A stretch of DNA of 64,000 nt from Eledone cirrhosa (Eukaryota). The stretch is from NCBI GenBank assembly GCA_964016885.1, contig OZ024740.1:149916001-149980000 (forward strand), in the 5' to 3' direction. The notes under the pieces are model-generated. The model did not search any database. It was not told where the DNA came from and saw only the letters and a list, made by a program, of their open reading frames with translations. Each line of letters opens with the position of its first letter. Position 1 is the first letter of the stretch. Made by a program: the position numbers and the translations under genes. Positions 2,476-53,490 of the stretch are shown one piece after another.

Positions 2476-5400
2476 AAAAACCTACCTTAAACTGCTTATA
2501 GACGCTACTAATTCGTTTATACGGAGAGTCAGATGGAAGGCCTACCACCTGGATAAGAACACCCGTAACCTTCCTGAACCCAAAGAGAGGTATGGCTTCA
2601 AAACATACCGAAACCCACCGCACAACACCTTACTGGACACCTTTGAAGAGGACCTGCTGAAAATGATCAAAAACGTTAAGTTCAGAAAGAAACACCAATG
2701 CAGCAATCCATTCTTAACGTCCCTTGATACACTAATAACTAAGATCAAGAATGACCCGCACCTCTTCGTCACCTCCGATAAAACCAAAAAGCTGTACAAG
2801 ATGGACGCGAGTAAGTATAAAAAATTAATCTATAAGGAACTACACAAAGACTACAAAAAGACACCCTCTAGTACCCTAAATGACATAAATAGAGTAGGGA
2901 AGGATATAGTCACCAGCTTAGAAATAGAAAAGTACACTAACCCGTACGTCCCTCTGACGCCTAAATTCTCTCTTAAGGATCACAAATATGACTTTAATGA
3001 AAGCCCCTCTATTAGACTAATATGCCCCTCTACATCAGATATAGGTAAGATTAGTAAAGTGATCCTCGACAGAGTACTACTGGAGCTTAATAGAAAGGCT
3101 AAGGTCTGCCTCTGGGGCAACACCGACCATGTCATAAATTGGTTCACCGAGTTGCCGGATAAAGCCACCCTGAAATTCATCCAGTTTGATATAGATAGTT
3201 ACTATGCCTCTATCTCCCCCATACTCTTAAATAAGGCACTTATCTTAGCTAGATCTAAAACTAGCCTCACTAAAAAAGAAATAGACATAATTCTAGCGGC
3301 GCGTAGAACCATTATCCAGTTCGAAGGCTCCCACTGGACCAGAACCAACCGTCCTGATAACTTCGATGTCACGATGGGGTCCAGTGACTCAGCGCAAGCA
3401 ACTGACCTGGTCAGGATATACCTCCTACATAAGCTTAGGGAAGAGATACCGGCCCTACAAGGAGGTGTATATAGGGACGACGCCCTGTTTACCGCCAGGA
3501 ACCATAGCCCCCGTAGGATAGAGAACCTTAACAAACATATACACAGGTTCTTCAAGTCATACGGCCTATCCGTAACTATGGACCTTAACCACAGGGTTGT
3601 CAACTTCCTGGACGTGACCCTGGAGTTGAGTACGGGCTTATACAAGCCATACCATAAGCCAGGAGAGTGCCTCTCTTATATTAATTATGCCTCCAACTAC
3701 CCTAAGCAGACTCTCAACTCCATAGTCTATAGTATCTCACATAGAATCTCGAGGCTATCCGCCAATGAGGATATCTTCAACCAAGCGGCAGATTACTAAA
3801 ATAGGGCCTTGATAAGCGCCGGCTTTAACCGAGGAATTTCCTACATCCCTATCGCTAGCTCTAGAAACCACCCCCCCTCATAAAACGAACGTTATAGTAA
3901 GCCATACCTATAACCGATCACGCGGCGACCTCGTTCAAGTCGGATATAATAGAATAGATAACCGCCTAAAGATCACGACCCGGCGACGGTGAACACTGTA
4001 GACTACTCGAACTATTCCCCTATTATAAAACCAACAAAGGCGGCGGCCTACTACCAACGCCTTCCAACCAACATCTTCGTGTACATAAACATGGAAGAGG
4101 TAGGAAGAGTACACCCGAGCATAAAGTGAAAGAGGCACCGAACGGGCGACTGCGCATTAACACACATAAGAGCGGTCACCTAGATGGAACCACCCGTAAC
4201 AAAAGTACAAAGACACGTAATCGCCACCGTAACGTCCTATGGTTCCGCCCCCTACTCTCGGAGTGTGGCCTCCAACATACCCCGGATGTTCTTCGAAGCC
4301 TTAGAGAAGAACTTCCCGCCCAACTATAGGTATAGAAAAATTCTTAATAGGAACAATATAAAAATATCCTTCTCTACTACTCCTAACCTAGCAGACATCA
4401 TAGGAACAACGAACCACAGTAAGATCACCAAGACACAACATCTCAACACAGACGCACCTACACCTGACAATAACTATATCGGCCTTAAAACTCCCTGGCA
4501 GCATCCAATAGTGTTGGCAACGGCATCCGCAGACGCAACCAGCATAACCGCGAAATGACTGGGGAACATGCAAGACATGACATGCGGAATAACAATCGCA
4601 CCACCCCGCGTGCTGTGGGTTGTAATGGTGCTAACGACAGCTGCGGTAGCGTAGGTAACAACGTAGGCAGCAACAATGATAGCCTTACCGTGGGAAATAG
4701 ACGGAACCGCGACAGAAATTGCAACTGCCGCGACAGAGGACGCTGCCCCCTTAGAGGATACTGCTTGACTGATAGGGTTATATATAGATGCACTATTACT
4801 AGCCACAATAGCGTTAAACATTATATAGGGGCTACCTCCGGCCCGTTCAAAATTAGGTGTCGAACACATCTCCACTTTTTCACAAATAGAAAACTAAGGC
4901 ACTCCACTTCGCTCGCAGACTACATCACATCACTAAAGGACTTAAACATCAGCTTCTCCACGCACTGGGAGATTGTCGGCAGGGCTGCACCGTACAACTT
5001 CAAGAGGAAATGCGATCTTTGCCTCATAGAGCTCTACCACATCATAACTGCACCCCACGAGCTCATCAACAGCAGATTAAAAATATCCTTCTTCAGATGG
5101 GTTAAGGATGAGGAGTGAAACCGTACACCGGATCTCCCTGCAACAAGTCTTAACACCCCGGCGGGCAGGCGCTGCAAAATAACACCCAGGAAACAATCCT
5201 TGCATACCAGACCCAGCTTCAGGCAAACAGATGCGGCAAAAAAAAAAAAAAAAAAAACTCTCAAAATAAGCGTTGATTACATGCGTATCGACAATGGTAA
5301 GGTTGTAACCTCATTTCGTAGCAGATAAAAATAAAATTTGTCCGGGAAAAACTGCCCTAACACCGGCCAGAGTTACCTCCCTTGACCTGCTGCAAAATCA

Positions 5401-6867: not shown

Positions 6868-8590
6868 GAAGACCAGAGTGTACCATCTCCACCACCTATG
6901 ACACCGGACTCTATTACAACCAGGGAATTTACACCTGCAATGCTGCGACGTCACCTAAAAAATAAACGCAACCATGCCTCTCCTGGTCTTGATGGTGTTA
7001 CGTACCTGCTTCTTAAACGTGGTGGGTACTTACTTCTGCACCAGTTATCACGCTTCTTCCAATTCTGTCTGAACAACAGTGCTACTCCAGAACAGTGGAA
7101 AACTGCCAGTATCATTCCTCTGTTCAAAAAGGGTCACCGCACATCACCTGTGAACTATCGTCCAGTCAGTCTTACTAGTTGCATCACCAAACTGATGGAA
7201 TCCTGTGTCAGAGAAACACTTTGGAACTTCTAGAGCTCTCACAGTCTTATCTGGCCCTCGCAATTTGGATTTATCCCCAACTCCAGCTGCTGTGATAAAC
7301 TTATAGAGTTTCTTGAGGACATCACCCGGATCACTGATGGCGGCTCATGGGTGGATGTTGTTTACCTTGACTTTGCGAAAGCCTTCAATTCTGCTCCACA
7401 CAAAAGGCTTATGGCAAAACTCTCTGCAATGGGTGTGAAGGATGATCTTTTTAACTGGTTGAAGTCCTTCATTCACAGTCGAAGAGAGGTAGTCACGGTT
7501 CTGGGACAGCATTCCTCACCATATGAGATGTCATCTGGTGTACCACAGGGATCTGTTCTTGGCCCCCTTTTGTTTGTGGTATATATTAATGACATAGATG
7601 CCAACTTAAAGAATGCCACGGTACTAAAGTACGCAGACGACATCAAGCTGTACCTTGAGATAAAAAGGACAGATCCTGAACACTATAGATCTTGCTTGCA
7701 GTCTGCCCTGGACACAATGCAACAATGGATCTCAGACTGGCAACTCAAGCTAGCTGTGGACAAGTGCACCACCATGCATTTTGGGAGTAAAAACCCAGCG
7801 TCCACATACTCCCTCCACAGCACTAATATCAAGAAGTCCTCTTGTGAACGTGACCTGGGCATTACGGTCAGCAGCGATTTGCGTTGGACGAAGCATGTCT
7901 CTAAAATTGTCAAGAGGGCCGAGGGTGTCTTAGCATCACTCAGCAAGACCTTTGTCAGCCGCTTTCCAGATATCTATTTAAGGCTGTACATAGCTATGGT
8001 GCGGCCACACTTAGAATTTGCATCACCAGTCTGGAACCCCTATCTTGCTCAGAACATTGACCGCCTGGAAACTGTTCAGAGACGTGCAACCAAGCGAATA
8101 CCCTCCATCAGGCATCTACCATACTCTGAGCGCCTTGCTTCCCTGGGCATGGATACATTGAAGCTCCGACGCCTGGCAACTGACTTGGTAAACACCCACA
8201 AAATTGTTAACCTTGTTGCCAACAACAACCCTGAGTACCTTTTTGATTTCCATGTGTCTAACACACGTGGACATGCCCACAAAGTCAGAAAACAGAACAG
8301 TTTCCATGACTTTCGGAAACATTTTTTCACGCTCAGAGTTGCTGAAGCATGGAACAAACTACCTGCATCAGTTGTTAGCTGTTGAGACACTGCATCCTTT
8401 AAGACCTCCATGCTTCCCGAGATCCGCCAACAACTAATGTTCCCCCCTCCATACACATACACACATGTATACCATGATTCATACACTATTCACTTCCCTG
8501 ACATTTGTGTAATATTCTATGTACTATGCATACACCTTTGACGAGTTGTAGTGCACCTGAGCACTTTACACAATAATTTCATTATTATTA
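6868..8590 (+). mobile_element. CR1/L2-group LINE, 5'-truncated RT with in-frame stops
   Basis: SPGLDG, WKTASIIPLFKKG, NYRPVSLTS, YLDFAKAF, GVPQGSVLGP, YADD, FFTLRVAEAWNKLP; ends in (ATT)n. Confidence 0.9.
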
Positions 8591-9122
8591 AACGGAAAAA
8601 ATGAAACGAAATTTCATTTCCCACTCTTAGTACGGCTGTTACGTAAATATAAGTATGTACACGTACATACATAAATGTATACAGACGTACAGTAGTATGT
8701 ATATATATATATACATACATGCACACATATATATATGTACGTATGGATTCACCGAACATTTATTATAATGCTCGGTGTGTTTGTAAACAAACATCCCGTA
8801 TTAAGCCGTAGTGTCGTTTGTTCAACACTGACAAAGGAACGCTGTACTAGTTTCAAGCTTATTAGCTATCGTCAGCAACGGACGATAGCTAATAAGACTG
8901 AAACTAGTACAGCGTTCCTTTGTCAGTGTTGAACAAACGAGCAACGATGGTTGCTGGACACAACGGCTTAATACGGGATGTTTGTTTACAAACACACCGA
9001 GCATTATAATAAATGTTCGGTGAATCCATACGTATATATATGTGTGTGCATGTAAGTATATATATATACATACTACTGTACGTCTGTATACATATATGTA
9101 TGTACGTCTACATACTTATATT
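8590..9122. mobile_element. Fold-back (palindromic) non-coding element with central hammerhead
   Basis: 8646-8873 is the reverse complement of 8881-9122 (one ~16 nt indel); unpaired extension 8590-8645. Confidence 0.9.
8840..8880 (-). ncRNA. Minimal type I hammerhead, canonical core
   Basis: CGTTG-CTGACGA-T-AGCT-AATA-AGCT-T-GAAA-CTAG-TA-CAGCG; stem I CGTTG/CAGCG, palindromic stem III ACTAGT. Confidence 0.85.
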
Positions 9123-9822
9123 CATTGTTATTATTATATATATATATATATATTTAAATGTATAGAAGGTTGGCCGTATGTATGTGTACGCGCATGTGTA
9201 TGTATATATGTGTACGTTTGAATAGGACATGCTTACCCAATTGATACAGAACAGTCAGAAGGCTCGTGGCGGTATGTATTAACAAGTGTGTGTGACTGGG
9301 TCCATGGGAGTAAGGGAGAGAGGGTGTGTGAGTATATATACTGCGATGTATGTGGCGGTGTGGGTGTCTGCGCTTGTAGACGTACGAGTGTGAATGCATA
9401 GATAGGTATGTGTCTGAATGTGTGTGTGTTACTATGTGTTTATTCTAGTATGTGTGGGTGCTTACCCTGAAGTGTGAGCAGACGTGTGAAGTACTGAACC
9501 CAGCATGACTCCATTGAAATGTGTCGGATGGAAAATGGTTGATGAACCGTGTGGCAGCAGATACTGACCAGAACTTGTGATGACGTGGAGTAAAAACAGC
9601 CAATGGCATGACAGGTGTGGAAAGAGGGTTTTTTGAGGGTGTTGTTTTGATAACACCCCAGTGATAAAATTTGCTCCGGACATAACACCCGTGTCTGAAA
9701 GAACCCGCAGAAGTAGAATCAGCCAGATCCATACAAGGACCATGACTCGAGCTACATGCCGGCGAAACATTTGTAACACGAAATAAACTAAGTCCAGATG
9801 CATCACTGATTTTTTGTTTTCT

Positions 9823-10585: not shown

Positions 10586-11565
10586 CTAACAATTCCAAGC
10601 CTCAACATCGGAATTTGTTTCCAGTTTCTTCGGATTCTTTATCCATTCCAAAGCCTTTGATACGCTTAATATCCAGACATCATCCATCTTTGAAATGTTT
10701 TCTAGGTATTCTTTCAAGACATCAAAATTATATGGTCTAGCAAGAATCCAATTCACGTGAAGAAACATACCCGCTGGTGCTCGGTTTGAATTATAATTAA
10801 TATTGAACCTTTCCATCAAAAATTTAAGAAGTTCAATTTTGCTTCTGGGTTGATTACACCCATCGAACAAAGAACAAGGGTTTTTGTTCGTGTCATACCA
10901 GCGGTTTACGGGCACTTCCCAAAAGCCAGGGTATGATTCTGTAGGACATTTCTTGTTCACACAAGACTTGCCTGGAACGCCACCGGACCTTTCTTGTTCA
11001 CATGCAGTCTGCAAAGGTGTATCTAGTGTGAATGGCCAGTATTGGTCCAAATTCTGATCACTGTCAGCACCCATAACTATTGAAGAGTCCCAAGAAAACC
11101 CAAAATCTTTCAGAACATCGAACTGTTTATTACCACCCATTTGAAGAAAAGGAGAACGAAAACCTTTAATCTGATTTTCTGGTATGCCGGATTTCTGAAT
11201 GAGATTATTTTTTATTCCAATTATTTCCTCTTTGTATTCATTATAAGACATATTTCTCCAGGAAGCAGACGGGAACTTATGGGAGACAGAATGACTTGCC
11301 ATTTCATGTCCTTTTTGGTACATTTCCTTTGAAAAAGTATAATTATTTTCACCAGAAATGAAAAATGTGAAGCTTATTGGACATCCGTTAGGATTTTTAA
11401 GTCCCAAATTAGACAATCTCCGGTAGTAATCAATGTTCCTTTTAGTGAAACCGTCGTCAAAAGTTAGCAAAAGTATTTGTGGTGTTTTCTTTCGTGACAA
11501 ACCCTGGGGAAGTTTAGTTGACAGACATTTGCAAGCAGGAAGTTGACAGCTGTCGTTACAATTAT
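10586..11565 (-). CDS. Chitin deacetylase-like polysaccharide deacetylase (CE4/NodB), terminal catalytic exon
   Basis: Intact ORF with C.LP.C.C, LLTFDDG, NPNGCPI..TFF, HEMASHSVSH, GFRSPFL, DSS, WPFTLD, PGFWEVP, RAP.GMFLH, DDVWI; polypyrimidine tract plus CAG acceptor at 11566-11578 suggests the ORF-track Met (11629) is intronic. Confidence 0.9.
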
Positions 11566-11795
11566 CTGGAGGAAAAGTGAAATGTGATATTGATATAGTA
11601 CCGAAATTAAAGACATTGAATAAAGACATTAAAAATAAAAACGGTTAAAATTGGTCAACCAATTTCCCAGGGAATTAATAGAAACCAAAATATATGATAG
11701 TGCAAATAGCTGGAATAGGTGGTTGTATATTCTACTAAATTTAAAGCTTACTGTATTCATTCGTGTATGCAAACACATATATAGACACACACACA

Positions 11796-20884: not shown

Positions 20885-20989
20885 TAAATGTAAGTATGCA
20901 CACGTACACACACATATATACATATATACATATATACATATAACCCCCCCCCCCCCCCACATATATATATATATATATATATACATACG

Positions 20990-21029
<40 letters not shown>

Positions 21030-21037
21030 CACATACG

Positions 21038-21080
<43 letters not shown>

Positions 21081-21688
21081 GCACTCACATATACATATAC
21101 ATATGTACGTATGGGTTATATCGAACATTAATAACAATGTTCGATTCGTTTGTAAACAAACGGCCCGGTTTGAAGCTGTGCCGTGCTGGTGACCGATCGT
21201 CACCTGTTTGTTCAACACTGGCATTGAGGAACAATCAACATGTTTCTGGGTCATTACCCTTCACCAGGACTGTATACCTCTCTACCAGTCTGTTGAACGG
21301 TTGAAACTATGTATTATTTTCTTAAGTACACATCGGCTGAGTAACCTCATTTGCATACCGAGCGAGTTATTGCTGCCCTTGCTGAATATCAAAAATAGAA
21401 TTAAAATTTTACTTCTCGCCCTAGCACAGCTGATTCATAAATGTAAGAAAATATTATATATATTCAACCGTTCAACAGACTAGCAGAGATCTGGATATAC
21501 AGTCCTGAAGAAGGGTAATGACCCAGAAAGATGCATGTTGATTGTTCCTCAAAGCCAGTGTTGAACAAATAGGTGACGATCGGTCACCGACATGGCACAA
21601 ATTCAAATCGGGCCGTTTGTTTACGAACGAATCGAACATTATTATTAATGTTCGATATAACCCATACGTACATATGTATATGTATATA

Positions 21689-21733
<45 letters not shown>

Positions 21734-21860
21734 ATGTGTATATATATATCCGTGTGTGTGTATATATATATATATGGGTGGGGTGGGGGGGTACGTATGC
21801 ATACTTACATTTATGTATCAGCTGTACTAGGGCGACAAATAAAATTCTAGTTTTATTATA
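20885..21860. mobile_element. Fold-back non-coding element with a hammerhead in each arm
   Basis: 20885-21305 inverted to 21463-21813; shares tttgtaaacaaac and gtttgttcaacactg blocks with the 8590 element. Confidence 0.85.
21500..21544 (+). ncRNA. Type I hammerhead (mirror copy 21232-21272, minus strand)
   Basis: CAGTC-CTGAAGA-AGGGT-AATG-ACCCA-GAAA-GATGCATG-TT-GATTG; mirror copy has CTGGTGA and GAAA-CATG-TT. Confidence 0.75.
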
Positions 21861-26878: not shown

Positions 26879-28277
26879 ATATATATATATATATATCTTT
26901 TTTTTAGTATATGTTGGTTGTATACCAACACCTCAGTATGCAGATTGGAGCACGCGACGAAGTGCGCAGGTTGGTTTGGTTCCTGCGGAGTAAAGTAAAT
27001 TAAAATAAAATAAATGAGTCAAATGTTTAAAATTTGGCTTCGTTTATTACTTCTATATATATTTCGGTGACAGCCATCTTTGGTTGTGACCTCTTCAGGC
27101 AGTCCGAATTAGTGTGGTATAGACAAGTACACATGTTGTTGAGGTGTAAAACTTTGTCAATACTCTGATATGCCCAGTTCCTGGTTGGGTTGTTATTTCA
27201 CTGAGGAACTGGAATCATATGAATGTTAACGCCAAGTCAAACCACCCTAGATCCATAACCAAGGCAGTGGTGAAGAGTGTTTCGGACAGGATCTCCAGCC
27301 TGTCCGCAAGTAAGGAAATATTCGATAACAACGGGGAATATTACAACGCAGCTCTAAATAATTTGGCACATAGCCAAAATATAACATATAGTCAGAAACG
27401 CCGGGATGGGGATGGCCCAACGGACACCCACACCCGCGTTGCCCGGGGGGGGGGCCTAACAATGCAGGCAGAGTAGGAAACAAATAGGCACCACGAGCCC
27501 GACACCACCACACGGGCGTTGGTGACGAGTACGCTTAACCATGTGATGAAACCAAATATGAGTAGCAGTCTCAGGGGTGATGCTAACAACCCCAGGCCCG
27601 ACGACCCCGACCGCAGGACACGTGGGGGAGGGGGGAATGGGGGAACACCCCACGGTAGATCTCCCAGCACGGGCAACGACCACCCCACAGATTCGGGCCG
27701 TGAAGATAGCAAAACCCATAGCGCCCAAAGGGGAAGCAACAATGCGGGAACCACCAGCAACCCAACAAATCTCCAACAACTCACGACGCCCCGATCCACA
27801 CATATAGGAGGAGACACAGAAAAATCACGTGGTACAACCCTCCCTACTCAGCGGCCCTAAAGAATAGCTTGGCCCGATCATTCTTTGGACCACTTGATAA
27901 ATGCTTCCCGAGGAACCATAGATACCACAGGATCTTCAACAGACACACTGTGAAGATCTCGTATTCCCCCACGAGAAATCTGGCCCAACATATAGCTAGC
28001 ATCAACAGGAGTAGGCTTAAAAACCACACACAACCAGAAGATGGCAATACAAGCACTCAGCAGAACCATGTGAAAGGAGGGAAGGGGGAACTCCCCTCAA
28101 GCCATAGGGACCAACCCAGGCTGAGCAGACACCATGAAAGCCTAGAGATTGATTCTGACACAGCCATTATAATTTAGCCAACATCTTTATAACACACACA
28201 CATTTTAATTTATTTGATTTTTGATTTTTCAATTTTCAATTTTTCGATTTTGATTTCTCATTATTAATTTGTTATAA

Positions 28278-32574: not shown

Positions 32575-35466
32575 TGTGTAGGAAAATGATTCCTTTAGTA
32601 GGAATATTTTTGAATGAACATATTTTCCTTACTTATTCGTATTTTAACTAAACTAATCGAAACCATTGAAACAGAAATGCTCCAAAAGCTGGAACAACCA
32701 TTAGAACCCAATCTACGAGATGTCCACTCAGTGAAAAACACCCTAATCAACATATGGACTCAAAAGCTCACGCCCGCAAATTCGCCCTTTGGAATCTCCT
32801 AAAAAATAATGGCAAGGCAGACATATATGAAAAGTGGCTAAACTCTACCCCAATCAACCTCCCCAAAAAACTCCAAATAAAACCCATCCCGAATGAACCA
32901 AAAAACCAACAAAGACTTAGGGAAAAGATGGCGTTAGAAACATTTTAAATAGAAATAGAACTGTTGCGATTAAGAGCCAACTCCAACGAAGAAAAATTCA
33001 AGTCACTCGACCAACAGATGGACACAGAAATCTCAAAGCACTCTGAAGGCCTACTCTACGAAAAAACCTTAAAACTTTGGAAAGAAAACTGTGGGGATGA
33101 AGAACTAACATCCCTCCAGCGATGGGAAAAAAACGTCACCTGGTTCAACAACTACGAAATAGACTTCAAAAATGAACAACATACAGGTAACCCATTTTTA
33201 AAACAAACTAAAACTCACACACCACATGCACAACAAATAGCAAAAAAGTAACAAAACATGCACAACAAATAACAAAAAAGTAACAAAACGTCCAACATAC
33301 CCCAGCAAAACTATAACGATAATCCTAAACCCAAACCCAATACGATTCGAAGGGAATGGGAGATTATCCATGAACTAAAAAACAATACGGACATTATAAT
33401 TAAGGAAGCGGACAAAGGAAGTACTGTTGTCATTATGGAGGCTGAAAAATATAAAAATTCTATGTTCTCTCTCTTACAAAATACTAATTACTATGAAAGA
33501 GTAAAAAACTACCAGCAATCAAAAACAATGACCAGATTAAACACACTGATTTATCGATACCAGGAAGACCTAACTAAAAAGGAATGCGATTATTTAACAC
33601 ATTTTGAATACAAAACCAGCAACCTTTACGGACTTCCGAAGATCCACAAGTGTAAAATAATTAACGATGCCTGTAAACAATCCACCTCAGCCTGCGTGAA
33701 CACACAATACCCCACAGACCTTAAATTAAGACCAATTGTAGTGGGCCCACAATGTGAAACACACAGACTGAGCAACTTTATAGACATACTACTAAAACCA
33801 ATTCTCAAACACATACCAAGCCTTGTAAGAGACGATCTGGACCTCTTAAACCACCTCCCCAAACATGTCAACAACGACACTATTATTGTGTGTTTCGATG
33901 TAGTGAATCTCTACACAACGATCCCACACCAATACGGACTAGAAGCAATAGGATTGTGGCTAGAGAAATATCCCAATGAGATACCTGACAGAATAGAAAA
34001 AAGCTTCATCACCGAGGGATTAAAATTCATCTTACAGAACAACTTTTTTTTATTTCGATGGCAGTACTTACAAGCAAATATCGGGGACTGCGATAGGTAC
34101 AAAAGCCGCTCCAACTTATGCCAACTTAGTCATGGCATACTTAGAAGTCCAGATATATGAACAGTCCAAATCAAAATACTGATTGAACTTCCACAAATAT
34201 TTATCAGAGAATTGGAAACGCTACTTGGATGATTGTCTCATTCTTTGGTCCCACACACTCGACCAACTGAAGGATTTCAAAAACTTAATAAACTGCATCA
34301 ATAACCACATCCAATTCACAATGGAATACAGCCAAGATCAACTCCCATTTCTGGACATCTTAATCTTTAAAAAAGACACAAATATTGAAACTGACATACA
34401 CTACAAACCAACAGATTCCAAACAATACCTGCTATTCACCTCCAACCATCCAAAGCACACGAAGACGAACATTCCTTTTAACCTAGCAAGAAGAATTTGC
34501 ACAATTGTCTCCAATTATGAAACGCGAAATAAAAGACTTCAAGAATTAAAGGAAATTCTACTCGAAAGAGAGTACCCTACATTACTAATAAATAATGGAA
34601 TAGAAAGGGCTAAAGCAATAGGCATTGATGAATTACCAAAACAGAAACAAATTCAAGGTACGTCCAATATTCTATCATATATCTCAACACACAACCCAAG
34701 AAATGCGGAAGCTTACAATACTATTCACAAGAACATCCCACTACTAAAATAAAACCCAAGAATGAAACACACAAAATAATCAAAAGCAAAAGACAACCGA
34801 AATCACTGAAAACATTACTCACCAATGCCAAATTACCTACCACAAACCCACAACCAACTGTCAAAAAATGTGGTCGCTCTAATTGTGGAACCTGCACTCA
34901 CCTCATTGAAGGAAACACGTATACATTTAAATCAGGACAAAATTTTACTGTAAAAAATCACTTCACTTGCTCATCAAAAAATCTACTTTATGCCATTAAA
35001 TGTAAAGGATGCAATGAAGATTATATAGGACAAACTAAACTCACACTCAGAAACAGAATGACAGTTCATCGCCAACAATTACGAGATCCAACCACGAGAC
35101 AGATACCACTAAGCGCACATCTAGACATATGCGCAAGTAATAAGACACCCAAATTCCAAGTCATCCCATTTTACCTTTGCGCTAACAATACAACAGAACA
35201 AATACGAATAAATAAGGAAAATATGTTTATTCAAAAATATAGAGCAGCATTAAATATGGTTTAATATACATTATGTCAACACCATAACATGGTAACCATC
35301 CAATTAGACACATACACACACACATAACACCTTCTACTTTAGAAAATAAAAACCCGAACTAAATAAACGTTAACATACGTTTGCACTGACAATACAACAG
35401 AACAAATACGAATAAGTAAGAAAAATATTTTCATTCAAAAATATTCCTACTAAAGGAATCATTTTC

Positions 35467-37297: not shown

Positions 37298-40823
<3,526 letters not shown>

Positions 40824-43529: not shown

Positions 43530-46500
43530 ATATGAATAAAGTTAGTCCTTCATCACTGATCTTCCAACCATCATTGGTATTTCATCACTTTAAAGACCAT
43601 ATACCTCCGGTTGGTGCGAGCAACGGCTAAAGAAAGTCGTTGGGACACGTAAATAAGGGGAACGAGCGAGACTGTAAACAAACAAAGATAGTAATGCAAC
43701 GAAAAGTGAGGAAGAAAGAGTCAAGTCCCAGATTTCCATGAATATAAGTTCGGTGAAATCGTGAACGAGAGAGAAAAAAGACCATCAAACCTAGTCGAAA
43801 TGTGAGCAAGGAAGGAATTCCGCACAGGTCAAACGGGAGGAAGAAGGAGTCTAGTCCCTGAATTCGGTGAACATAAGTTCTGTGAAATCGTAGACAAAAG
43901 AGAAAAAAGGAACAACCAGCCTGGTCAAGCGTGTGCGAGAAAAGAATTACGCACAGGTCAAACGGGAGGAAGTAGGAGAGGTAGTAGCAGAGAGTGAAGG
44001 GTGCCAACAACTTCCAGGCGTCTAACAATGGCATACCACCCTTGTATGGGCTCCGCAAAGACCACAAGACAGTCGACGACCCGACAACAGGACCACCAAC
44101 AAGACGCGTATGCGGAGCAAATATAGCTAGCAACTACAGGATCTCCTACTTCCTCTCAATGGTTATGCGCCCCATAATCAAGATGTCCCAGATGTATGTG
44201 ACAGTACAGAGGACCTCCTCAGCTGAATCAGTGAGTGCAACAAAAACAAGAACCTATCCAACTGCATAATAGGCAGCATGGATGTGGTATCACTGTACCC
44301 ATCCATTAACATTGATTTTGCTGTGGAAAAATGTGTGGAGATGATCATTGAGAGTGAGGTGGAGTTCTGCAACATCGACACAGACGAACCGGGCCTCCTA
44401 CTTAGACTTACCTACGACACTGACTACCTAGACAGCCATGACCTTAGAGGTTTCTGCCCCAGTAGACCCATAAGAGGGAGACCCCCACTATAACCTCAAT
44501 GGCTAAAAAGACTCCCATGGGAAGGTGGATTGGGTGGACCAAAGCTATACGGACCCCCCAAAACAATGATCAGGTAAGAAAAATGGTCGCACATGCAATA
44601 GGGGCTAGTATAAAAACTACCCTAAAGGGCCACATATTCAAGTTCAACGAGAAGATCTACACCCAAAATGAGGGAGCAGCCATTGGCGTCAGCATTGCTG
44701 GTGATGTTGCCAACCTTTTTATGGTATGGTGGGAAAGGAGACTTAAAGATCTCCTTAATGAGAGCTCCATAGACCTCATCATGTACTCTCGTTACGTAGA
44801 CGATATCAATATAGTTATAAGAACAACCCCCCAGAGAGCACTAACAAGTTTGATTTAGAACGTAGCACAATGGAAAGCATCCAGCAGATAGCTAATTCCA
44901 TACACCAGAGTATAACTGTAACTATCGACTACCCTTCCAAACACCCTAACAATAGACTACCTGTATTAGACACGGAACTCTGGATTCACACTATAGACGA
45001 GAGAGCCCAAATTCTCCACTCACACTATGCTAAACCTATGGCCTCCAAATACCTGATACTCAAAAACTCAGCAATGTCCAGTAGTGCTAAGTTTAATATT
45101 CTGATCGCAGATTTGGTACGAGTGATGAAGAATGTGTCTCGCATGTGCGACCCAACAGAAATGGAAAGACACATCCAACACTTTATCAACCGCATGCAGT
45201 TCTCTGGCTACAACCAAAGAGACAGAGTCAGAGTATACGAAGGAGCCATGGAGAAGTATAAGACCCTCATAGAACTGGACATGAAAGGAATTTTCCCATT
45301 ATACAGGAGCATATCATGGAATAGCTTAGATAGGGCTAGACATAAGATAGGGAAAGTCACCTCATGGTACGACAACCAGAGATACCAGAGTGTCATGTTT
45401 GTGGACGCTACCCCTGGAGGGAAATTAGCTAACCAGTTTAGAAAGGCCCTGAGAAAGACCCACTTAAAGATTAAGGTGGTAGAAAAGCCAGGAACCACCA
45501 TAAAATCCCTGATCAGCAAAACCTACCCTTTTAAGAAAACCCACTGTACTAATAGGAAATGTATCATATGTAAGGTAAACCCTCGGTTAAACTGTAAAAC
45601 TAGAAACGTAGTCTATAGCATAAGATGTACAGAGGGTACTTGCAGAAACATGACAACAACATACATAGGCGAGACAGCTCGTAGCATAAGTGAAAGGATA
45701 GACCAACACTGGGGGGAACTAAAAGGACGAAAAAACGGTTCAGTACTATACGAACATGCCAGACAACAACACGACGGTAACATAGACAACATAGAAATTA
45801 GAATAATATCTAAACATAGAAATGACCCAGCAGATAGGCAAATCAGAGAGGCCAGTGAAATAGAACTTAGAAGGCCAAGGCTAAACAGAAAGAATGAATG
45901 GAATAACAACAACGCCCAAACAAACAACACTGACCTAAGAGAAGTATAAATAAATAAATAGATAAATAAATAAATAAATACATACACAAGCACAATAGCA
46001 ACAAACACATATAAACACACACTAGTAAAGATAGAATACATTAACCAATACACAGTCACCCAATCACGAACACACATCAAACAAAACACTATACACATAC
46101 GCAAACGCATGCGCAAAGAAGACAAAATAAAATAAACAAATAAATAAATATATAAACAGACTAAATAAAGATGGCGTAGAAAATACAATGCAACGGGAGG
46201 AAACAATAGCACCATGACGATGTAGCAGATGTGCAACGAAAGAACTTTGATAAACTATATATATGTGTTTGTGTCTATATTGTATCTGTATTTTTGACCG
46301 TTAGTCAGTCAATGGCAACATTGAGGACCGAATAAATTAGATTACCGATATAAAAGACACAGAAGCGAAAAGCGAAAACCAACCAAACAGTGAGTGTGTT
46401 CTGTTATTAATTCTGTCAATATTACACAAATATGACCCTCCCCAAGTATAACAATATTTGTTTCGACACACGATTTCATATCAAAAACCTCGCAAAACTA
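43530..46500 (+). mobile_element. PLE of a third lineage, frameshifted
   Basis: LYGLRKDHK, MDVVSLYPSI, QNEGAAIG, RYVDD, LPVLD, HYAKPMAS, CTNRKCIIC, VVY..YIGETAR, R..REA; degenerate HHR at 46210-46252. Confidence 0.9.
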
Positions 46501-50122: not shown

Positions 50123-53100
50123 CTGTGAGTGTTTTAGCGAAATTGATAGCTCTAAGGAGAAGTGGTAAAGTGATGGAGGAGTAGTAATTATTGATGTCGA
50201 ATTGGATAAAACGGCAATGTTCCTTGTTACATATGCCGTTGAACCAATCAATCACCGCGAAAGAATTGTTCCACAGTGCAAGAGGGGCCACTTCTAATTT
50301 CAGGTATAATTCTATCAAGAATCCTTTTACTAAGTCTACCTAAATCGGACTTCGTAGGGTTAATAAGCCGAATAGAGGGGTTGTTCGGAAAATTGAATTT
50401 GTGATCCTTCAGGGTAAAGTGGGGAGAAATAGGGTCCAGAAGTTCAGTGCGGTCCAGGATGTTGAGATCAGAGGTGATTTTAAACTCAGCATCGTTGATT
50501 TCATTGATGACGCAGCGATTAGTTTTCCGGTAATCCTTAGTTACAGCATTATGTAGTAGTTGATGGTAAGTACTGCGCTCCACTTGATATAGGTTGCCAG
50601 TTTTGTCGGAATGGACGTGCATGGCATTAGAATCCTTAATATAACGAATTCTATTCTTCAGGTCCTGCTGGAAGGAATTGCTCCTATTCCGAAATTTGAT
50701 ACTCCGTATGAGTTCCAAGACATCGTTTTCGAAGGGTAGCAATGCTGGGTTACACGGAGGGTTATTATAGGTTATAAACCCCAATTTATCCTGATTGTTG
50801 TCTGCTTTTCGCTGATTATCGAAATAAAAGGCACGCCGACGCAACCTTTTAATGAACGCGTTTGTTTTCTGTATCAGGAGTTTTAGGTATGTTTTCCTGC
50901 TTGGTACGGGTATGTTCTTTGTAGAAATATTCAGATGTTGTTTCTGCATGATGAATATAAGTCAATAGAGTGCTCAACCGGTGTACCGTGATGATGGTCT
51001 TTTGACCATGACTAAGTGCGGCTCACGTGCTTGCGACAGGTTCAGAAAAGAACTCACAGCCTACTTTAAAGGCTTCAACCTCTCTATACAGGTTGAGGCC
51101 AACCTCTCGGTCGTTAATTACCTCGACGTTACCCTCAATTTATCGAATGGCTTGTATTACCCGTATAGAAAGCCGAATGATACGCTTAATTACATAAGTA
51201 AGCATTCTAACCATCCTGCCAGCTTAACCAAGAACCTGGTAAGAAACGTTTCTTTGAGGCTTTCCTGTCTATCTACTAACGAGCATATTTTCAACGACCA
51301 TTCCACATATTACAATGAAGCCCTTGCTCAGAGTGGATTTGTCGATAAGGTAGCATATACAGAGTACCAGAATAGACCTAGAAGAAATAGATCCCGACGC
51401 ATTATATGGTATAACCCACCATATAATATGGAGGTGGCCACACCATTAGCTAAGATATTTCTATCCCTTATTACGAAGCATTTTCGCCTACACATAAATA
51501 TAGTAACATTTTTAATAGAAATACTATTAAAATGTCTTACTCTATGACTCCTAACCTTGCACATAACATCACAGCTTCAAATTTAGCTAAACTACCTAGC
51601 CGTAGAAACACGTGCAACCCTGTAGTTAGTACTAACTGTAATTGTAGGAATCGGGTTGATTGCCCCCTATCCGGGAAATGCCTCTCTAGTAACATTGTCT
51701 ACAAATGTAAGGTTGAAACACCCACGTCCCATAGGGCCTACATAGGGTTAACCGCCAATAGATTCAAGCAGCGTCTTTACATGGATACCCATTCTTTTCG
51801 TTACCCTCTAAGAAGGAATATGACGTCACTTTCAGCTTATATCTGGAGTCTAAAAGACAACCACACCCAATATAAGTTACACTGGGAGATCCTAGCTAGG
51901 GCTAGATCGTATAACGGAAATAAAAGACCATGTGACCTCTGCGCCGCTTAGGCTCTGGAAATACTCTACACCACTGATCACATCTTAAACAAAAGATCTG
52001 AGGCAATTTCGGCTTGTAAACATAAATTGCACAAAACCTTCCTGTATTACAGCCCCACATTATACCCTAACGGATAGTACGATCTATACGCGGATATTTT
52101 ACGTCTTTATGTTGTAGCTAAGTATATGTTATGTTTATACCATTACTTATTTGCATAGGTAAGTATATATTACCTGTATGTTTTGTGAAGGAACGTATAC
52201 TTTCTCGTACGTATACTTGATAGTATATGTTATGGCGTATATTTTATATATTCTGGTACATATGCTTTTGGTTATGTGTATACGTGAGTTTTGCGTCTGT
52301 GTGAGTATGCGGGTTCGTACGTATGTAGGGTGTGTGTATATGTGTACTTCGTGTTTTGGTTGACGTACGTCTCCGAACATATGTGTATTTACATGCATGT
52401 AGGTATGTGTGTGCGCTTGTTATATACGTATTTATTTATTTATATACGTTTATATAATTATTTGTATACACGCACACACACATATTTATATGTGCGTGTA
52501 TTTGTATACCTATGGCGAGTGTTTTCACGTATGCTTGTGTATGTATTTATTTGATTTCAATTACCTCTGTATTTTATTTACTTTATTCTTAACTCTGAAG
52601 CCGAGAATCATTCGGTCTCCTAGTTAGAATTTTAGTCTACGACTTCAGTTATACCATTTACGAGGTTTTGTCTTTGCGTGCAATTGTTCCCCACGTTCCA
52701 CATATGACGTATTGTCTTCTTTTTTTCCGTTCATTGCCAGAGAACGTCTCTATGAACCACCTAAGAGAACATTAGTCTACGACTTCTTTTATACCATAAA
52801 CGTGGTTTTGTCTTTGCGCGTAATTGTTTTTCACCGCTCCTGTTAATGACGTATTATATTCGTTTTTTCCAGTTCTTTGCCAGGGAACGTTTCCACGAAC
52901 CAAAGTATCGTCTTCCTGTCTTCCTCCGGTTGCAACGTTTTTTGAAATATTCACTTCTGCGTTCACAGATTGACTTTGTTAGTTTCAGAAGATCCCGTTA
53001 AGGATGAAAGCAGCGATTCTTTGCTTAAACTTTAATCTCTTTTTTTAATAAATATATATGGCAGCGATAATGAGGGACAGAGACCGCTGGAGAGAACTCG

Positions 53101-53134: not shown

Positions 53135-53199
<65 letters not shown>

Positions 53200-53204
53200 G
53201 AGTT

Positions 53205-53490
53205 GTAATAAAATGAAAACGAAATTTCATTTCTCACACTTAGTACGGCACTTACTTAAATGTAAGTATGTATGTATACGTACATACATATATGTATACA
53301 GACGTACAGTAGCATGCATATATATATATATATATATATACATACAGGTACACATACATATATGTACGCATCAGTTTAGCGGACGCTTATTATAGCGCCC
53401 GCTTTGTTCGTTTGTAAACAAACTGAACAGCTACTGTACGTCTGTATACATATATGTATGTACATATATGTATGTACGTATACATACATA

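Follow-up and report, generated by a model that had tools for sequence, protein, structure and literature searches.

The window analysed here is a 64,000-nt stretch of the Eledone cirrhosa genome (contig OZ024740.1, positions 149,916,001 to 149,980,000), to which all coordinates refer unless another locus is named. Its positions 7234-8589 (plus strand) hold the 3' part of a LINE, made up of an RVT_1 ORF (7234-8385), a 3' UTR and an (ATT)n tail, and it is into this tail that an unrelated element, occupying 8590-9122, has been inserted. The whole insertion consists of two 5'-truncated pieces of a ~420-nt hammerhead ribozyme (HHR) unit placed head to head, u1 to u307 in inverted orientation being followed by u8 to u251, where u1 denotes the first C of HHR stem I. 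The left arm, as delimited by alignment (u1-u251; 8646-8880, minus strand), has an 18-nt deletion relative to the family and continues outwards into a 56-nt tail (u252-u307; 8590-8645, minus strand), which is found on this arm only and whose end at 8590 is a fixed outer end of the family, termed T. The right arm (u8-u251; 8881-9122, plus strand) contains a broken HHR and ends at a second fixed outer end, M (~u250). A 7-nt loop (8874-8880) lies between the inverted stretches 8646-8873 and 8881-9122, which are identical at 217 of 224 aligned bases and differ by 7 mismatches, two 2-nt gaps and one 18-nt gap, the latter corresponding to 8939-8956 (plus strand), a stretch retained by the right arm and by the family. 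The initial annotation had correctly described inverted arms of ~230 bp, a last stretch of ~55 nt on a single arm and the absence of an ORF (stop-free frames in the element reach at most 97 aa, and those are low-complexity). Given the differences between the arms, the palindrome is not 'pure' as had been claimed, and the tandem repeat family behind the element had been overlooked.

The junction between the arms (8880/8881) is blunt, with neither microhomology nor inserted bases. A likely 12-nt target-site duplication (TSD) that had gone unnoticed flanks the element at 8578-8589 and 9121-9132 (both plus strand), with 11 of 12 positions identical, and its right copy is followed by (ATT)n/(TA)n; the duplicated word is absent after the tail in all 14 other copies of the host LINE. 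The minus strand of the element folds at -366.8 kcal/mol (z -45), a value reached by none of 100 shuffles, and a transcript through it would be expected to collapse into a single long hairpin, burying the ribozyme. The locus is present three times within a ~32-kb tandem segmental repeat and was entered once in the junction counts below. As a copy, it is a dead, doubly truncated insertion, ordinary and inert.

The type I hammerhead motif occupies 8840-8880 of the minus strand and comprises a 5-bp stem I, the CUGACGA core, a 4-bp stem II, GAAA, a 2-bp helix III within a palindrome of 6 nt, and a GUA cleavage triplet; cleavage is predicted from the sequence to fall after u36, between 8845 and 8844. 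The motif had been called complete and canonical. Its type I core is indeed full, but stem I has lost the outermost of the family's six base pairs and stem II is closed by a U.U mismatch rather than by G-C. It was also correctly seen that the opposite arm begins inside the core, at 8881; this arm lacks C3 and U4 and has an altered stem II. Metazoan type I HHRs are described as having a helix I of 6 bp, a helix II of 4 bp and a helix III of 1-2 bp within a palindrome, and are expected to act as dimers (Cervera & de la Pena 2014, PMC4209133). The unit family shares these helix lengths and differs from the canonical form in the U.U closure of helix II and, in the window copy, in the 5-bp helix I. 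Pairs of HHRs on opposite strands, 100-700 bp apart, are noted in the same work (PMC4209133).

A search of the window against Rfam at the gathering score returned no match, and among the 64 matches found around the element at E<=10, all of them under their gathering scores, none was a hammerhead; the HHR call therefore rests on motif and covariation. All stems and the NUH triplet are kept in 386 of 478 HHR cores of the family, overlapping loci being counted in. Sister families in the same genome preserve the geometry although their letters differ: over seven sequences, 8 of the 12 pairs are changed on both sides, and 97.6% of the cells can pair, compared with 26-47% in slid controls, while none of 500 shuffles reaches the covariation score. 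Because the sample is small and its rows were chosen by core pattern and intact stems, this covariation supports selection on the fold and falls short of proving activity. The helix III palindrome varies in its letters yet stays palindromic across families A to D, as expected for dimer-acting type I HHRs according to PMC4209133, and the closing pair of stem II is A.A in family B and G-C in family C. The ~420-nt unit itself folds at z -5.7, part of the signal coming from TA palindromes. By eye, a possible splice donor lies upstream of the HHR.

The members of the family are pieces of a non-coding tandem HHR unit with a period of about 420-430 nt, of which the 3.0-Gb genome contains many copies: 3,058 exact matches were counted for a 37-nt word from the tail and 1,503 for a word running from the M end into (TA)n, with none for the reversed control in either case. 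Long arrays join the units head to tail at a fixed point; locus L006 has 3.1 copies at a period of 428 nt and L095 has more than 20 units. The longest stop-free frame in the doubled unit is 61 aa, and the ends of the family are asymmetric and not LTR-like. At L093:817-5121 the units alternate between 422 and 420 nt, a dimer-period repeat that may reflect either a dimeric template or later amplification.

Several relatives were seen alongside. An older sister family, B, which is ~69% alike, is represented in the window by a head-to-head copy at 20965-21755, in whose HHR all three helices show compensatory changes; locus L340 has the same two-end anatomy as this copy. A decayed relative of the unit (~77%), with its tail end in (TA)n, lies at 53156-53423. 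Two further tandem HHR families, C and D, were found at L169:1-520, L357:5800-6300 and L237:1-720. Family C is a distant sister with homology to the unit along its full length; it retains the unit's tandem join and occurs head to head in L357; family D has a period of ~310 nt and ends in (TA)n. Families C and D amount to a small radiation of repeats of the retrozyme type within the genome. Contigs from four runs, whose type is unrecorded, place the family in the records of three organisms.

The outer ends of the family are concentrated at two sites, M and T (u307), which in the first 160 loci account for 168 of the 215 distinct ends. After removal of duplicates (50-nt context, 44 or more matches), 319 loci contained 159 distinct head-to-head junctions. 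Seven were left out of the paired-end counts, one arm being cut by the edge of the locus, and the 152 with both outer ends readable comprise 98 M+T, 4 T+T, 3 M+M and 47 with a non-canonical end, so that M pairs with T in 98 of the 105 junctions with canonical ends. In a set anchored on M, 46 of 47 partners end at T, and an inverted partner is present in 69 of 92 M-ended chains. Targets are rich in (TA)n, which is found on both flanks of 61 of 98 complete insertions. Among 14 insertions with a flank other than (TA)n, 11 have direct repeats of at least 8 nt (shuffled mean 3.7, maximum 8); duplications outside (TA)n measure 8-14 nt, and the clean cases 12-14 nt. Fixed termini together with TSDs of constant length and a cognate transposase had been named in the initial annotation as evidence against its reading: the outer ends proved to be fixed, whereas TSD length varies and the two termini differ from one another.

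At the level of sequence the family has the features of a non-LTR retrozyme (an HHR in each monomer, head-to-tail monomers within 150-450 bp, no coding capacity, TSDs longer than 4 bp) and those of an insertion of the type made by Penelope-like elements, or PLEs (an adjoining inverted, 5'-truncated copy, a one-sided tail, variable TSDs and an AT-rich or microsatellite target), and it lacks those of a MITE. The ORF with RT and GIY-YIG domains that defines an autonomous PLE is absent from the unit and from sequence continuous with its ends. The initial annotation had suggested looking for a parent extending upstream, and none was found among the PLEs compared. Across 30 EN-end loci and 4 long loci of the abundant Neptune-like PLE of this genome, neither DNA in common with the unit nor, by a pattern search, a canonical HHR was found. 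No DNA in common with the unit was seen either for two PLE ends of the window that carry an HHR (scores of 36 and 42; shuffle maxima of 38 and 36, respectively). ORFs within 400 nt of chain ends were considered as candidates and rejected, being unrelated neighbours. It is very unlikely, in our judgement, that the unit is no more than the pLTR end of an unsampled autonomous PLE and that the copies are ordinary truncated PLE ends with no separate non-autonomous element. Their anatomy is the same as that of PLE ends, and only ~350 loci out of thousands were examined; against this stand the fixed-point head-to-tail joins of the long arrays, the same tandem join in distant sister family C, and the lack of any recurring flank leading into an ORF at the 456 distinct 5' ends and 215 3' ends.

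The initial annotation had tied the axis of the palindrome to the ribozyme, proposing that a cDNA stopped at HHR stem I and folded back to give an RNA-derived mimic of a MITE. We plotted the junction centres against HHR position and observed that they spread over the unit, the pattern named in that annotation itself as contrary to its reading. The inner ends scatter over the whole unit (chi-squared p=0.06 pooled, p=0.34 in the new set defined below), and both fall within the HHR in only 2 of 159 junctions, the window copy and L103. The first 160 loci had hinted at hot spots at u0-11, at the cut site (u36-38) and at the foot of the tail hairpin (u264-274), and these three were fixed in advance and then tested on 64 new junctions (128 ends). 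None replicated: u0-11 held 5 of 128 ends (3.7 expected, p=0.30) and, in a second count of the new set, 5 of 156 (4.5 expected), the cut site 1 (0.9 expected) and the hairpin foot 4 (3.4 expected). The pooled data do favour a stop at stem I, with 16 of 318 inner ends at u0-11 (9.1 expected, p=0.02) and 23 of 456 among all 5' ends (13 expected, p=0.007), but these pools include the discovery loci and the window copy, and the former count without the two ends of the window copy is 14 of 316 (p=0.07). A weak preference for u0-11 is possible, yet the ribozyme does not set the centre, and the position of the window copy's centre is most likely a coincidence. Fold-back from stem I thus appears extremely unlikely, even though it is geometrically possible in the window copy. 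With short, near-perfect palindromes in just 4 of 98 complete insertions, the family is no MITE mimic. A true DNA-transposon MITE with terminal inverted repeats deserves next to no credence: the window copy does resemble a long inverted repeat with a target duplication, but the variable centre and asymmetric ends rule this out, lengths likewise vary widely, and tandem arrays, duplications of unequal length and a covarying ribozyme also speak against it. In several respects the initial annotation was borne out: the element derives from RNA, is related to PLEs or retrozymes, carries a tail and is no DNA transposon.

Self-priming in a more general form, in which the cDNA folds back and copies itself, an endonuclease resolves the hairpin at the second fixed site and local hairpins set the position of the fold, has been proposed for head-to-head PLE palindromes (PMC3846280), so that the fold-back idea of the initial annotation was, in general terms, already in print. 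The arm lengths bear directly on it. In 43 of 98 complete insertions neither arm is nested in the other, about as many as the 40.8 obtained by permuting lengths, and the lengths of the two arms are independent (rho 0.02, p=0.83). The non-nested insertions cannot be products of self fold-back, with the qualification that post-insertion deletions at palindrome centres could turn nested arms into non-nested ones. Joins within 30 nt of symmetry are in excess (24 of 98, 13.8 permuted, P=0.004), and many of them lie on local palindromes, but such joins are predicted by self-priming and by the annealing of two cDNAs alike. Rare variants are common to the two arms at 8.0% within a locus and at 0.9% between loci (maximum 1.7% in 200 shuffles; chains longer than 2.6 kb and zone u151-200, which is TA-rich, were excluded), which agrees with self-priming; adjacent tandem units share them at 11%, comparable to the arms of one locus, and the sharing suggests either a common source RNA or locus for the two arms or later homogenisation. 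In the window copy the right arm lies within the range of the left arm, as fold-back would need, but a clean 3-bp fold-back would not leave the extra 4 nt at 8881-8884. We regard self-priming as an unlikely account of the family as a whole, and it may apply to a minority of copies, the window copy included.

We consider it likely, instead, that the element is an insertion of a high-copy non-coding hammerhead repeat made in trans by a Penelope-like enzyme, in which two separately primed cDNAs were joined. A multimeric or circular RNA of the unit would be bound by the PLE protein, and TA-rich DNA would be nicked by the endonuclease on both strands, at positions ~12-14 nt from each other. Reverse transcription would be primed at u307, the end of the tail, from one nick and at u250 from the other; both cDNAs would halt at essentially random points, and their 3' ends would be joined, usually via 1-6 nt of microhomology, before fill-in. 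In the window copy the cDNAs would have stopped at u1 and u8, and such stops would yield a near-perfect palindrome centred on the ribozyme. Fixed outer ends, M+T pairing, scattered inner ends, duplications, microhomologies and tandem arrays can all be read directly from the loci; for the microhomologies, an overlap of at least 2 nt is present at 49 of 76 asymmetric junctions without inserted bases (18% by chance), its boundaries being approximate as taken from BLAST. That arms ending at M are paired with arms ending at T, while the lengths of the two are independent, favours twin priming as the origin of inverted insertions of the PLE type. In the twin priming of LINE-1, both target nicks reportedly prime cDNA, and a microhomology join gives an inversion; the unit family differs in that each priming has a fixed internal position and that the two arms are duplicates of a single unit. 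Several points run counter to the two-primer model: no autonomous partner was found among the PLEs compared, near-symmetric joins are in excess, the junction of the window copy has no microhomology, the tail of 56 nt exceeds the published 30-40 nt, and M+T pairing implies a difference in start site between strands that an anole PLE did not have in vitro (PMC11167929).

Much of this anatomy has precedents. PLEs are described with an inverted 5'-truncated copy, a one-sided tail of 30-40 bp and (TA)n targets, by a mechanism called open (Craig 2021, PMC8557442), and the same anatomy with TSDs of 8-10 bp was reported together with the self-priming proposal (Arkhipova 2013, PMC3846280). In vitro, two RT start sites bound the tail and are alike on both strands in the anole PLE, each of the two DNA strands is cut and extended, and the reaction does not depend on HHR cleavage (Frangieh 2024, PMC11167929); an active non-autonomous PLE pair has also been described (PMC9977147). 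The unit family thus resembles endonuclease-positive PLEs in the inverted truncated copy at the 5' end, partial tandems, the tail at one end, variable TSDs, (TA)n targets and two RT starts, and differs from them in its lack of an ORF and in its longer tail; it favours two independent primings over the self-priming of PMC3846280.

Non-LTR retrozymes, for their part, are built of tandemly repeated non-coding monomers, 150-450 bp long and each with a single type I HHR. They occur in thousands of copies, have target duplications longer than 4 bp, are proposed to be non-autonomous PLE derivatives (Cervera & de la Pena 2020, PMC7229834; bioRxiv 10.64898/2026.07.22.740005) and are reported to derive from PLE ends (Li, Clavereau & Pollet 2026, bioRxiv 10.64898/2026.07.22.740005). 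The unit family is like the metazoan non-LTR retrozymes in its tandem non-coding HHR monomer, copy number and TSDs longer than 4 bp. Circular RNA and cleavage, demonstrated for published retrozymes (PMC7229834; bioRxiv 10.64898/2026.07.22.740005), are putative in the unit family, and the PLEs compared here include no parent pLTR. The portions of PMC7229834 and bioRxiv 10.64898/2026.07.22.740005 available to us contain no description of head-to-head arms with two fixed ends. We found no published account of the family in the literature on Penelope inverted insertions, octopus retrozymes and cephalopod non-autonomous Penelope elements, Repbase and Dfam being outside this scope. The combination of inverted copy and tail is already known for PLEs; the value of the unit family lies in the counts, which show M paired with T and arm lengths independent of each other.

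With confidence only a little better than even, we extend the two-primer reading to the proposal that asymmetric twin priming gives rise to the head-to-head insertions of PLEs, with priming at the tail end on one target strand and 56 nt inside on the other and with cDNAs of independent length that join via microhomology, and that animal non-LTR retrozymes are inserted by the PLE route and not spread by satellite amplification alone. If true, this would replace the published idea of self-priming and offer natural material on which to test it. Being short, young and present in many copies, the passenger lets the structures of PLE insertions be counted, their mechanism having been stated to be open in PMC8557442, and a retrozyme family is tied to PLE machinery through insertion anatomy rather than phylogeny. 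For annotators, the rare symmetric copies are those that can pass for MITEs.

The window is dense in PLE remnants. The Neptune-like PLE, found at 33273-35264 and at L355-L358, is very abundant and young, with 21,455 first-look candidates, many 775-aa frames and an upstream frame of ~410 aa. Minimal hammerhead motifs with a long helix II occur at PLE ends running into (TA)n, at 27098 (minus strand), 29508 (plus strand) and 58583 (minus strand), the first two facing apart and flanking remnants of PLE ORFs. RT or GIY-YIG-like remnants, PLE-like by eye, lie at 2477-5118, 37740-38441, 44762-45949 and 50248-51951, and a Pfam scan of some of these returned no match. At 10586-11644 (minus strand) there is an uninterrupted 352-aa polysaccharide deacetylase frame (PF01522); it lies in the ~32-kb segment, which is repeated in tandem at least three times with 98-99% identity and could be a gene array or an effect of assembly.
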